Positions 20,616 through 21,105 of a stretch of DNA of 38,670 nt are shown here, one piece after another. Origin of the DNA: a virus; the IMG/VR virus record IMGVR_UViG_3300045988_088524, positions 1 to 38,670 of that record; one strand, written 5' to 3'. The notes under the pieces were generated by a model, which was not told where the DNA came from, ran no database searches, and saw only the letters and a list, made by a program, of their open reading frames with translations. How positions within the stretch are numbered: the stretch's first letter is position 1; every line of letters starts with the position of its first letter. The translations under genes were made by a program, and so were the position numbers.

Positions 20616-20659
20616 TAACTAGCCTCCTTTCGGTCGTTGTACTATGTGTTTCTAGTTTA

Positions 20660-20688
20660 ATTGTAGCACAGGGGACTCTTCTTGTCAA
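20660..20688 (-). promoter_or_regulatory. sigma-A-type promoter of the packaging/late operon
   Basis: Minus strand TTGACA (20688-20683), 17 nt, then TGC-TACAAT (20665-20660). Confidence 0.6.
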
Positions 20689-20720
20689 GTGATTTGTATA
20701 TTGTGTTGCAAGCGTTGCAT

Positions 20721-20769
20721 TTGTATTGTATTGTGTTCCCCCTTTTAGGGGGAATACAATACAATACAA
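20721..20769. repeat. 22-bp-stem hairpin element, copy 2
   Basis: TTGTATTGTATTGTGTTCCCCC-TTTTA-GGGGGAATACAATACAATACAA. It lies 32 nt upstream of the -35 at 20688. Confidence 0.8.
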
Positions 20770-20873
20770 TTGACAACCAAACGCGGATACAAAAGAACAC
20801 AACTTGACAGCAAAACACTCCAAGCCCCGCAAAGACACTCCCGATGACGCTCAGGTTGTTTGACAGGCGTTGG

Positions 20874-20915
20874 CGATTTGTATCGATTTGTATTGCGATT
20901 TGTATATATACAAAT
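20874..20915. repeat. iteron array: three CGATTTGTAT direct repeats running into an 18-bp palindrome
   Basis: CGATTTGTAT at 20874, 20884 and 20896. ATTTGTATATATACAAAT at 20898-20915. Confidence 0.8.
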
Positions 20916-20919
20916 TGTA

Positions 20920-21020
20920 TGTGCAATCTGCACAAACAAGCAACGCTCCAATTGTGCAACCTGCTAATATATTGTGCAAATTGCACAAAAAGAAGCTCAA
21001 AACCTTGTGCAATTTGCCAA
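20920..21020. promoter_or_regulatory. operator-like TGTGCAA/TTGCACA palindromes abutting the early promoter
   Basis: TGTGCA-ATC-TGCACA (20920-20934). TTGTGCAA half-site at 20952. TTGTGCAAATTGCACAA (20972-20988). TTGTGCAATTTGCCAA (21005-21020). Confidence 0.6.
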
Positions 21021-21050
21021 TTGACAAAAGGGCATTTGTCATGTTATAAT
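21021..21050 (+). promoter_or_regulatory. early promoter
   Basis: TTGACA, 18 nt, TGT-TATAAT. Confidence 0.65.
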
Positions 21051-21105
21051 TTTTATAGAAACAACGGAAAACCCAAAACCAAACATAATACAGGAGGAAA
21101 TCAAA

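Follow-up and report, generated by a model that had tools for sequence, protein, structure and literature searches.

In the satellite phage P4, ori and crr, which lie several kilobases apart and are both needed in cis, carry one kind of short iteron, recognised at both sites by alpha, a primase-helicase-winged-helix protein; these iterons are octamers, there is no long hairpin, and the primase and helicase families differ from those of the phage described here. The oriV of RSF1010 (IncQ) combines an AEP-type primase (RepB'), a RepA-like helicase, iterons, and the hairpin priming signals ssiA and ssiB on both strands. In the SaPIs (Staphylococcus aureus pathogenicity islands), Rep/PriRep reads 5-6-bp iterons in opposed directions, just downstream of rep (PMC9371898). 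The Bacillus phage SPP1 has two origin sequences, of which oriR lies in the late region and interrupts the virion-assembly gene order (PMC6316719).

The window analysed here is the whole IMG/VR record IMGVR_UViG_3300045988_088524 (38,670 nt), from an uncultured gut phage; the 75-bp terminal repeat of this record is an assembly overlap within a gene. The control region is a gap of 490 bp that separates packaging from early genes (Table 1), and a blastn search of phage GenBank with positions 20000-22000 gave no match. An earlier note on this DNA had described the gap as a divergent promoter region with repeats for protein binding, between terS on the minus strand and the first early ORF on the plus strand. 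The flanking genes are as it described them, promoter and repeat scans support the predicted layout, and every repeat it listed was found, at most 1-2 bases from where it had been placed and all far above chance. Our reading of the sequence, in which we have about even confidence, is that the gap would be a composite of three layers, namely promoters, an operator array and an origin-like module.

Table 1. Positions in the window of the control region, its sequence elements and the related genes and sites.
Feature	Position	Strand	Basis and remarks
Control region	20616-21105		490 bp, divergent; gap between packaging and early genes
terS	20061-20615	minus	phrog_309, E 2e-28
First early ORF	begins 21106	plus	right flank of the 490-bp gap
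P_L1, leftward, terS-terL-portal-MuF	20660-20688	minus	predicted by promoter scan, 11/12; -35 TTGACA 20688-20683, spacer 17 nt, TACAAT 20665-20660, with TG
P_E1, early, rightward	21021-21050	plus	predicted by promoter scan, 12/12; TTGACA 21021-21026, spacer 18 nt, TATAAT 21045-21050, with TG
Palindrome TGACAAA-N6-TTTGTCA	21022-21041		-35 and spacer of P_E1
Repeat GATTTGTATCGA	19942		within terL
Half-site GATTTGTAT	20691-20699	plus	single; adjoins the -35 of P_L1
Palindrome TGCAAGCGTTGCA	20707-20719		TGCAA-GCG-TTGCA, TTGCA pentamers; left hairpin flank
Long hairpin/cruciform palindrome (copy A)	20718-20772		repeat scan, DNA folding, covariation; arms 20718-20743 and 20747-20772
TTGACA(G) words, three	20770-20865 (20770, 20804, 20860)	plus	same strand, right of the hairpin
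Direct CGATTTGTAT iterons, three	20874-20905 (20874, 20884, 20896)	plus	repeat scan
Perfect 18-bp palindrome ATTTGTATATATACAAAT	20898-20915		inverted iteron pair TTTGTA-N4-TACAAA, 6-4-6
Operator array O1-O4	20919-21021		TTGTGCAA-N-TTGCACAA type; repeat scan, conserved in near relatives
O1	20919-20935		centre 20927
O2	20952-20968		centre 20960
O3	20972-20988		centre 20980
O4	21005-21021		centre 21013
e2	21445-22050	plus	C-terminal PadR/MarR-like winged helix; candidate operator or iteron binder
Consensus promoter of e4	23103-23132		predicted by promoter scan; upstream of e4
e4	23175-23984	plus	paralogue of e2, with its own promoter
XRE-family HTH protein	26672-27067	plus	alternative binder; always just upstream of the primase-helicase gene
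Primase-helicase	27021-28832	plus	Prim-Pol/PriCT_1/AAA_25 helicase/C-terminal winged helix; candidate initiator for TTGYA iterons
Copy B of the module	14493-14660		P_L2, hairpin 14557-14608 and palindrome TTTGTATTGCTACAAA 14645-14660
P_L2, leftward, virion genes	14522-14493	minus	predicted by promoter scan; copy B

Divergent promoters and the early operator array

P_L1 and P_E1 are predicted to be strong divergent promoters of the sigma-A/70 consensus type. Both are host-type and would fire outward, P_L1 driving the packaging and head genes and P_E1 the early genes. The leftward late promoter and the rightward early promoter proposed earlier were both recovered by the promoter scan, and sequence comparison shows that P_L1 is kept in relatives. 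The genome has seven consensus promoters that are nearly identical, P_L1 among them, and these define the transcription units of this phage clade. The early transcription start would lie near 21057. No known transcript enters copy A of the repeat module.

To the left of P_E1, three or four TGTGCAA/TTGCACA-like palindromes had been noticed, the last abutting the early -35. There are four (O1-O4), of which O3 is a perfect 17-mer and O4 touches the -35 of P_E1. Their pattern occurs seven times in the genome against 0.37 expected, and six of these seven occurrences fall within the 490-bp region. The operators are phased, with spacings of 33, 20 and 33 bp and centres at about -130, -97, -77 and -44 relative to the presumed start, and they are conserved in near relatives, the 33-bp O3-O4 spacing being present also in L008. 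This phasing, the conservation and the way O4 meets the -35 support an operator layer that looks like early-promoter feedback: the operators would sit on one helix face, upstream of P_E1 and touching its -35, where a dimeric HTH protein of the phage probably binds and throttles early transcription. An operator centred at -44 could activate instead of repressing. None of the familiar host-factor boxes (CRP, FNR, Rex, cre, DnaA, LexA) appears to match the operator geometry.

That the operator set would act at the early promoter is in line with the position of O1-O4, all upstream of P_E1 only. The comparison with a Cro/CI-type switch, on the other hand, has to be given up, since the operators flank P_E1 only and the leftward gene is terS, not a repressor. 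Operators overlapping both divergent promoters, as in the lambda switch, were not found in the gap: O1, the operator nearest to P_L1, begins about 230 bp from its -35. Pfam and PHROG scans of nearly all ORFs of at least 90 aa likewise found no lysogeny module (integrase or recombinase plus maintenance repressor). No integrase or recombinase family was found in these scans, which bears out the absence of an integrase reported in the earlier note.

Besides the XRE protein there are further candidate binders, since e2, e4 and the primase-helicase all have winged helices. Being the first conserved early product and a winged-helix protein, e2 would be the leading candidate for the operators, with the XRE protein as the alternative. 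It is present in 15 of the 15 relatives compared, and its predicted structure (pLDDT 79) was matched by Foldseek with a probability of 1.0 and an E value of 6e-3. The paralogues e2 and e4 are both of CI size, and each has a winged helix at its C-terminus. Between relatives, similarity in the e2 winged helix follows the TTGTGCAA operators no more than loosely, and relatedness confounds the comparison. The primase-helicase, the XRE protein and e2 are universal in the clade, and because the XRE protein, e2 and e4 are conserved as widely as the primase-helicase, the binder is not assignable by co-occurrence.

The TTGYA-pentamer module and its conservation

The left two thirds of the gap are filled by a unit of TTGYA pentamers, consisting of the hairpin, the CGATTTGTAT repeats and the 6-4-6 palindrome. 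The 490 bp hold 22 TTGYA/TRCAA pentamers; the mean for the genome is about one per 200 bp. In the window they peak only at this site and at copy B, and each of four whole relatives has one or two such sites. For ATTTGTAT, 1.5 occurrences would be expected in the genome and 14 are present, a number that none of 100 shuffles reaches.

A hairpin of 22 bp had been described here; its presence stands, but its arms are in fact 26 nt each and 92% complementary. Its folding energy as DNA is -26.8 kcal/mol (z = -7.4), a stability that none of 200 shuffles matched. The outer arms are made of three TTGTA facing three TACAA which, with extra pentamers, gives a SaPI-type arrangement, with iterons of 5-6 bp in opposite orientation, two or more to each side. 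The TGCAA-GCG-TTGCA palindrome to the left was found as noted, and is conserved in relatives as GGCGTTGCA. Also recovered were the late-promoter-side repeat GATTTGTAT, the three CGATTTGTAT iterons, whose starts are 10 and 12 bp apart and whose number in near relatives ranges from two to four, and the GATTTGTATCGA repeat inside terL, which occupies the same place in L005, L006 and L008 and is absent from L007, L010 and distant relatives.

The TTGACA(G) words, too, are conserved and stand on the right-hand side of each hairpin copy; as rightward promoters they were rejected by eye and by the promoter scan, none having a usable -10. An intrinsic terminator was rejected as well, there being no T-run after the hairpin on either strand in any copy. 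Among known RNA families, none matched at gathering score, and only generic long-hairpin microRNA models appeared, far below threshold.

The 18-bp palindrome had been counted as the AT part of an origin-like block. It is indeed a perfect palindrome, but an unwinding role falls away: it is an inverted iteron pair and is missing from most relatives, which keep the geometry and not the AT-richness. The 6-4-6 geometry recurs in copy B and, as GTTGTA-N4-TACAAC, in distant relatives.

The whole module is duplicated at 14.55 kb, where the copy B hairpin has the same flanking motifs as that of copy A. The oriR segment of SPP1, which we take to lie between gene 7 (MuF family) and scaffold gene 11, presumably has the same position as copy B. 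In the window, both copies lie 30-50 bp upstream of the -35 of a strong leftward promoter of a virion operon.

Relatives were gathered by protein search with exact look-ups, and by DNA patterns. A looser hairpin pattern gave mostly chance matches and only two more true copies, and a viral-contig scan by TerS peptide patterns found no relatives. The comparison across relatives, which had been proposed as a check, showed the module, P_L1 and, in near relatives, the operators to be conserved. Three IMG/VR relatives retain two hairpin copies at a distance of about 6.1-6.2 kb, and two copies are also present in G001, G002, G005 and L159. In four relatives (G001, L157, L159 and L162) the second copy, in L157 a second pentamer-dense site, lies 0.1-1 kb downstream of the primase-helicase gene, within the early operon and with no promoter.

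Across 25 hairpin copies, 96.8% of the cells are paired and double changes occur in 6 of the 18 outer pairs; 0 of 500 shuffles were as good. Each copy folds individually. The centres, self-complementary cores of 10-20 bp that are often G+C-rich (CCCCC/GGGGG), vary in sequence while always remaining self-complementary, and in one relative arms of three TTGCA are paired with three TGCAA. Outer arms and flanking motifs are kept in phages whose proteins are only 45-55% identical. Judging from these alignments, the palindrome is under selection. The clade that carries the module, with its compensatory changes, is one of PurZ-carrying phages, for which the TTGYA hairpin is a sharp marker. As a test for a single-stranded form, G-T and A-C mismatches in the hairpins were compared for strand bias; no clear bias was seen in this ungapped count, which bulges in the hairpins make unreliable.

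The packaging genes can change without the module. In G001, the protein in the terS position is unrelated (BLASTP E 1.6; phrog_2412), terL is 29% identical and the portal is of a different family, and yet this phage, whose primase-helicase is 73% identical, keeps both the hairpin and the 6-4-6 palindrome; the module is therefore independent of TerS. G003 has a terS promoter and the same TerS family with no module upstream of terS, and the distance from the hairpin to the -35 varies across relatives (32-49 bp, and 246 bp in L014), so the terS promoter does not need the module.

A possible replication origin and the alternatives

The best reading of the module, and one to which we give an even chance, is that it would be an iteron-type replication origin or initiator-loading site, for which SaPI ori, SPP1 oriL/oriR and P4 ori/crr are the nearest precedents. 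The earlier note had seen an origin in the block of iterons and AT palindrome; the origin-like reading stands, but the core of the unit is the hairpin, which had been listed separately. The elements are non-random, the module is duplicated, the palindrome appears to be selected and, in the four relatives named above, the module is linked to the replication gene, all of which argues for an origin.

The architecture of the putative initiator is also right. The primase-helicase has Prim-Pol (13-158), PriCT_1 (182-240), AAA_25 (289-463) and MarR_2/HTH_24 (547-599) domains, that is, the helicase and C-terminal winged helix with a fused or adjacent primase that are looked for in an initiator, and by comparison it resembles the prim-pol of pRN1 ORF904. 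Where relatives that bear the module have a full-length match, identity to it is 66-93%, and an alignment of five genomes shows the stretch ST(V/I)SRQI, putatively of the recognition helix, to be invariant. The winged helix would recognise the TTGYA pentamers, and the protein would load there, opening or extruding the palindrome in place of the usual AT-rich core. Copy B would be a second origin or a cis-acting partner site, the same repeat set being present kilobases apart, at 20.7 and 14.55 kb.

An AT-rich unwinding core was not found in the module, and this counts against an origin since such a core is standard in SaPI, SPP1 and plasmid iteron origins. In the window, the module copies precede the primase-helicase gene by 6 and 12 kb; it is in the four relatives that a second copy is found downstream of it. 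Cumulative GC skew in four whole genomes follows only the direction of the genes and thus cannot locate an origin. If the module is an origin, a conserved palindrome can stand in for the AT-rich core of iteron origins, and such origins can be duplicated at varied positions, beside late promoters or the initiator gene.

The phage carries a PurZ/MazZ-type cassette, with which the melting advantage of A:T pairs would be lost. It is conceivable, though unlikely, that in this Z-phage clade (probably with 2-aminoadenine) the AT-rich core has been replaced by the iteron palindrome. Negative supercoils trailing the strong promoters beside it would push the palindrome out as a cruciform, and the prim-pol-helicase would load on and prime the hairpins of both strands, like RepB' on ssiA/ssiB. 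This would amount to an origin-opening mechanism adapted to Z-DNA. To our knowledge, there is no description of how phages with Z-genomes initiate replication or time their genes.

The main alternative, to which we give a lower probability, is that the module may be a late-gene control element, bound by an early protein (e2/e4 or XRE) that would set the timing of P_L1 and P_L2. Repression early or activation late would both be conceivable, and the arrangement would resemble phi29 p4 between divergent early and late promoters. This would explain why both window copies are directly upstream of strong virion-gene promoters, an adjacency that is kept in most relatives, also at copy A of G001, where the structural module has been swapped. 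All relatives compared have candidate early winged-helix proteins, and an iteron-like ATTTGTCA word lies within the P_E1 spacer. Nevertheless, four relatives have copies behind the primase-helicase gene that lack a promoter, the terS promoter of G003 has no module, an activator would not be needed at the late promoters, which match the consensus in full, and the spacing to the -35 is not fixed. In addition, the palindrome centre stays self-complementary while its sequence changes, which a plain dimer site does not need. As a late-gene control element, the module would make this a well-mapped but ordinary regulatory region.

We consider it very unlikely that the module is a structural or recombinational landmark, either a junction for module exchange or a site where a protein that organises DNA or binds hairpins would attach. 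In G001, the shared early module does give way to the swapped structural module at copy A, and copies are found at three different kinds of gene junction. Long palindromes can also stay perfect by template-switch correction, with no need for functional selection, and the perfection of this palindrome may have such a cause. However, retention of the outer arms and flanks at such low protein identity goes beyond a passive junction, there are typically two copies per genome, and direct plus inverted pentamers are typical of protein sites.

Finally, it is highly improbable that the ATTTGTAT repeats are TerS recognition sites in a pac site of the SPP1 pacL/pacR type that reaches into the packaging genes: one repeat directly adjoins the terS promoter at its -35, another lies in the 5' end of terL (as in L005, L006 and L008), domain searches give TerS an N-terminal HTH (a weak match only) and the portal and MuF proteins SPP1-type families that suggest headful packaging, and pac of SPP1 overlaps its terS promoter (PMC6316719), but the repeats do not track the TerS family (G001, G003), the second full copy lies 6 kb away or, in some relatives, beside the primase-helicase gene, and the terL-internal copy is in coding sequence and is not shared by L007, L010 or distant relatives.

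The region offers a compact group of testable sites, with four or five proteins as candidate binders, in uncultured gut and rumen phages that form a widespread clade.

Comparison with known switches and origins

Like lambda OR, the early side of the gap has tandem palindromic operators next to a strong early promoter in a divergent region. In contrast to lambda, the operators touch one promoter only, with 33/20/33-bp spacing, and the phage has no divergent repressor gene, integrase or lysogeny module.

The resemblance to ori and crr of P4 would lie in one multifunctional initiator that reads the same iterons at two sites. The phage resembles RSF1010 in its AEP-family primase and RepA-like helicase, and in having iterons together with hairpins on both strands; RSF1010 differs in using three separate proteins, in that ssiA and ssiB are two distinct hairpins, and in having an AT-rich region.

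Similar to oriL and oriR of SPP1, two origin-type repeat sets are found kilobases apart, one in the replication region and one in the late region, and the portal and MuF families match. [quoted passage not shown]

The SaPI origins share with the phage an initiator composed of primase, helicase and C-terminal winged helix, sets of 5-6-bp iterons on each side in opposed orientation and, in four relatives, the location of the candidate ori immediately downstream of the initiator gene. The phage helicase, however, is of the AAA_25 type (RepA/DnaB-like), whereas that of SaPI Rep is SF3, and the phage has no AT-rich core, its opposed iterons forming a long hairpin with a short variable centre. Moreover, the copies in the window are not beside the initiator gene, and there are two copies per genome. 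The region is thus a known design in an unusual form.

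Organization of the control region

The 38,670 bases of the window make up a complete IMG/VR virus record. Its ends share a 75-bp repeat that falls within a gene and results from overlap in the assembly, so the true length is 38,595 bp. Genes for virion proteins, lysis and accessory functions lie on the minus strand (~0.5-20.6 kb), and those for early functions and replication on the plus strand from 21106 on. The 490-bp gap between them (20616-21105) carries two promoters that point outward, P_L1 at the head of the packaging/head operon and P_E1 at the head of the first early operon, and everything that an earlier note had listed for the region was confirmed. 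The region combines two host-type promoters with an operator array at the early promoter and one copy (copy A) of a duplicated, conserved TTGYA hairpin-iteron module.

Coordinates of genes, promoters and sequence elements in the window
Feature	Position	Strand	Remarks
terS	20061-20615	minus	
terL, SPP1-type portal, MuF, major head protein, tape measure protein, endolysin	within ~0.5-20.6 kb	minus	
DUF932 protein, SNF2 helicase	early region	plus	
e2; e4	21445-22050; 23175-23984		early proteins
XRE protein	early region, 26672-27067	plus	
Prim-Pol/PriCT_1/AAA_25/winged-helix protein (primase-helicase)	early region, 27021-28832	plus	
C5 methylase, PolA	early region	plus	
PurZ-like adenylosuccinate synthetase, dUTPase, MazZ-like diphosphohydrolase	early region	plus	
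P_L1	-35 20688-20683, TACAAT 20665-20660	minus	consensus promoter
P_E1	TTGACA 21021, TATAAT end 21050	plus	12/12 promoter, 18-nt spacer
Seven promoters of the genome scan	3142-3171(-), 14493-14522(-), 20660-20688(-), 21021-21050, 23103-23132, 26620-26649, 32243-32272	as given	
-35/spacer palindrome, P_E1	21022-21041		TGACAAA-N6-TTTGTCA
-35/spacer palindrome, XRE/primase-helicase operon promoter	26621-26640		GACAAG-N6-CTTGTC
GATTTGTAT	20691		between promoters
TGCAAGCGTTGCA	20707-20719		between promoters
Copy A hairpin	20718-20772		26-nt arms; DNA fold -26.8 kcal/mol, z = -7.4
Three TTGACA words	right of hairpin	plus	
Three CGATTTGTAT repeats	20874, 20884, 20896		
Perfect 18-mer palindrome	20898-20915		TTTGTA-TATA-TACAAA
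Four TTGTGCAA-type palindromes	centres 20927, 20960, 20980, 21013		operators
Copy B promoter P_L2	14522-14493	minus	consensus promoter
Copy B hairpin	14557-14608		
Copy B palindrome	14645-14660		TTTGTA-TTGC-TACAAA
Copy B stem-loop	14670-14705		GGGTCAA...TTGACCC, inner CCGA/TCGG pair

A whole-genome scan detected seven near-identical promoters (AATTGACA, 17-18-nt spacer, (TG)TATAAT), all intergenic and correctly oriented, which mark the transcription units. The phage thus appears to depend on the main sigma factor of the host throughout, and neither an RNA polymerase nor a sigma factor of its own was apparent. Palindromes spanning the -35 element and spacer, present at two of these promoters and found in about half of the relatives, are possibly a fourth class of site, serving for instance XRE autoregulation. 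The word ATTTGTAT has 14 copies in the genome (1.5 expected); lone copies lie in terL (19943-19950) and near the portal/MuF junction (17001-17008), with matching positions in some near relatives (loci L005, L006 and L008), and their location in coding sequence may mean that they reflect protein conservation. The segment 32286-38670, wrapping to 1-75, encodes an HD-domain protein, PolA, a HAD-like protein, PurZ-like and dUTPase proteins and a MazZ-like dATP/dGTP diphosphohydrolase. Judged by gene content, this set, and in particular its PurZ-like, dUTPase and MazZ-like members, points to a 2-aminoadenine (Z) genome; homologues of PurZ, 65-86% identical, occur in every relative whose locus extends to that region.

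Operators and candidate DNA-binding proteins

The operator pattern occurs seven times in the genome, against 0.37 expected, and six of the seven are in this region. The array is found nowhere else in the genome. The four sites at P_E1 are 33, 20 and 33 bp apart, which places them on one helix face, at approximately -130, -97, -77 and -44 from an inferred start near 21057, the last touching the -35 element. They are kept in near relatives (the 33-bp spacing of the last two also in L008), and absent in more distant ones, such as the genomes G001, G002 and G003. The array had been likened to a Cro/CI-type switch; the -35 of P_L1, however, is ~230 bp away from the start of the nearest operator, and the left-hand gene is terS, so this is not a lambda-type two-promoter switch. 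In agreement with the note, Pfam and PHROG scans of nearly all ORFs of at least 90 aa gave no integrase or recombinase family. The simplest interpretation is that an early protein exerts feedback on P_E1; activation from the operator at -44 is conceivable, but P_E1 is already a 12/12 promoter.

The XRE protein is the one candidate binder that had been named; further candidates are e2, e4, the primase-helicase (a MarR-like winged helix at its C-terminus), ORF 24923-25219 (weak HTH matches) and TerS (a weak N-terminal HTH match). The CI-sized paralogues e2 and e4 belong to a family present in 15/15 relatives compared, without a Pfam or PHROG match. Both have a beta domain at the N-terminus, joined by a Lys-rich linker to a PadR/MarR-like winged helix at the C-terminus. 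In an AlphaFold model (14 sequences, mean pLDDT 79), Foldseek matched the last 100 residues to winged-helix regulators of the PadR/MarR type (probability 1.0, best E 6e-3, TM-score ~0.55 on the target). The XRE proteins of the window and of the relative G005 have an N-terminal Cys-rich extension, lacking in G001, G002 and G003, and the XRE ORF runs up to 47 nt past the point where the primase-helicase ORF is annotated to begin.

A duplicated and conserved hairpin-iteron module

Searching the genome with the region revealed a second hairpin (copy B), directly upstream of the consensus leftward promoter P_L2. It is followed by the same words as in copy A, ATGACA/TTGACA, GATTTGTAT and a palindrome, so that hairpin and TTGTAT repeats form one duplicated module. 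Both palindromes have a 6-4-6 geometry, and GTTGTA-N4-TACAAC is found at the corresponding place in distant relatives. This shared geometry identifies the 18-bp palindrome, previously read as an origin-like AT element, as an inverted iteron pair (TTTGTA-N4-TACAAA) rather than an AT-rich unwinding element. Several near relatives lack it, having just two or four repeats in direct orientation. The density of TTGYA/TRCAA pentamers rises to 12-15 per 200 bp within the modules, compared with a genome mean of 0.4-1.4; neither the window nor any of four whole relatives has a further peak. Copy B has a further conserved stem-loop, flanked by the iteron palindrome on one side and the last TTGACAG word on the other, with no counterpart in copy A.

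Comparison across relatives, which the earlier note had proposed, drew on TerS homologues, the hairpin DNA pattern, whole IMG/VR records and primase-helicase homologues. The hairpin was retained in a 350-610-bp gap in 10/10 TerS-linked relatives. Aligned over 25 hairpin copies, the outer 18 pairs can form in 96.8% of cells, with two-sided changes at six pairs (34 cells), a result equalled in none of 500 shuffles. The centres vary in sequence yet always pair (CCCCC/GGGGG, CCTCC/GGAGG, ATTCTT/AAGAAT, TCTC/GAGA), so the palindrome is maintained as a foldable structure and not merely as a pair of protein half-sites. None of the hairpin copies is followed by a T-run, no Rfam family matches the hairpin, and no known transcript enters copy A; whatever function the copies share must therefore be exerted at the DNA level.

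Individual relatives show local variation. In the GC-rich relative G002, the copy A hairpin (G002:C1:33676-33724, L035) has arms of three TTGCA and three TGCAA, each partner having changed accordingly; the iterons around it likewise read TTGCA/TGCAA, and copy B there keeps TTGTA. In the locus L007 the first early gene encodes a GIY-YIG (homing-endonuclease-like) protein (2571-3146), and the control region is shortened to 354 bp, without CGATTTGTAT repeats. In G001 (L024; G001:C1:30900-33000) the whole packaging and head module is swapped for unrelated genes, including a phrog_2412 protein and a phrog_146 portal, and the swap junction is located at the hairpin module and late promoter.

Possible roles of the module and comparison with known systems

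We favor, with moderate confidence, the module as a putative origin or initiator-loading site for the primase-helicase. The origin-like character noted earlier thus stands as the likeliest reading, although not by way of an AT-rich unwinding element. Control of the late genes is a less likely but credible alternative, as both copies do adjoin late promoters in most genomes. The second copy of G001 lies directly after the primase-helicase gene, in the early operon and not among structural genes, ~20 nt ahead of the next ribosome-binding site and without a promoter. Copies in L157, L159 and L162 occupy the same kind of place, that of L162 with a GTTGCA-N4-TGCAAC palindrome. In G003 (record 74% complete) the 165-bp gap holds a normal terS promoter but no module, copy B being the only one, and the distance from the P_L1 -35 to the hairpin varies among relatives (32, 33, 39, 40, 42, 49, 49 and 49 bp, and 246 bp in L014). 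Together these weaken the case for the module as a fixed part of the late promoter. A junction or other structural role seems improbable. Recognition by TerS as a pac site is least probable of all. In G001 the place of terS is taken by an unrelated gene product, terL shows only 29% identity and the portal belongs to another family; its retention of the hairpin and 6-4-6 palindrome between the early and late promoters, along with a 73% identical primase-helicase, argues against this reading.

An origin or initiator-loading site of this kind has parallels. SaPI Rep proteins, among them the PriRep fusion of SaPI5, are helicases that load themselves; through a C-terminal winged helix they read penta- or hexanucleotide iterons, which lie directly downstream of rep and flank an AT-rich center in opposite orientations (PMC9371898). 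The protein architecture and the opposed pentamers match those of this phage, whereas the AT-rich center is not matched here and the helicase domain family differs.

With SPP1, this phage has the portal and MuF families in common. The SPP1 oriR segment, whose neighbors we take to be gene 7 (MuF family) and the scaffold gene, corresponds in position to copy B. P4 ori/crr and the ssiA/ssiB hairpins of RSF1010 are possible further analogues. The two origin sequences of SPP1 are bound by gp38, and one of them, oriR, is found in the late region, where its segment breaks the order of the virion-assembly genes (PMC6316719). Unusual features of the present module are an iteron palindrome where an AT-rich core would be expected, a second copy whose position varies, and a context that is probably Z-DNA (2-aminoadenine).
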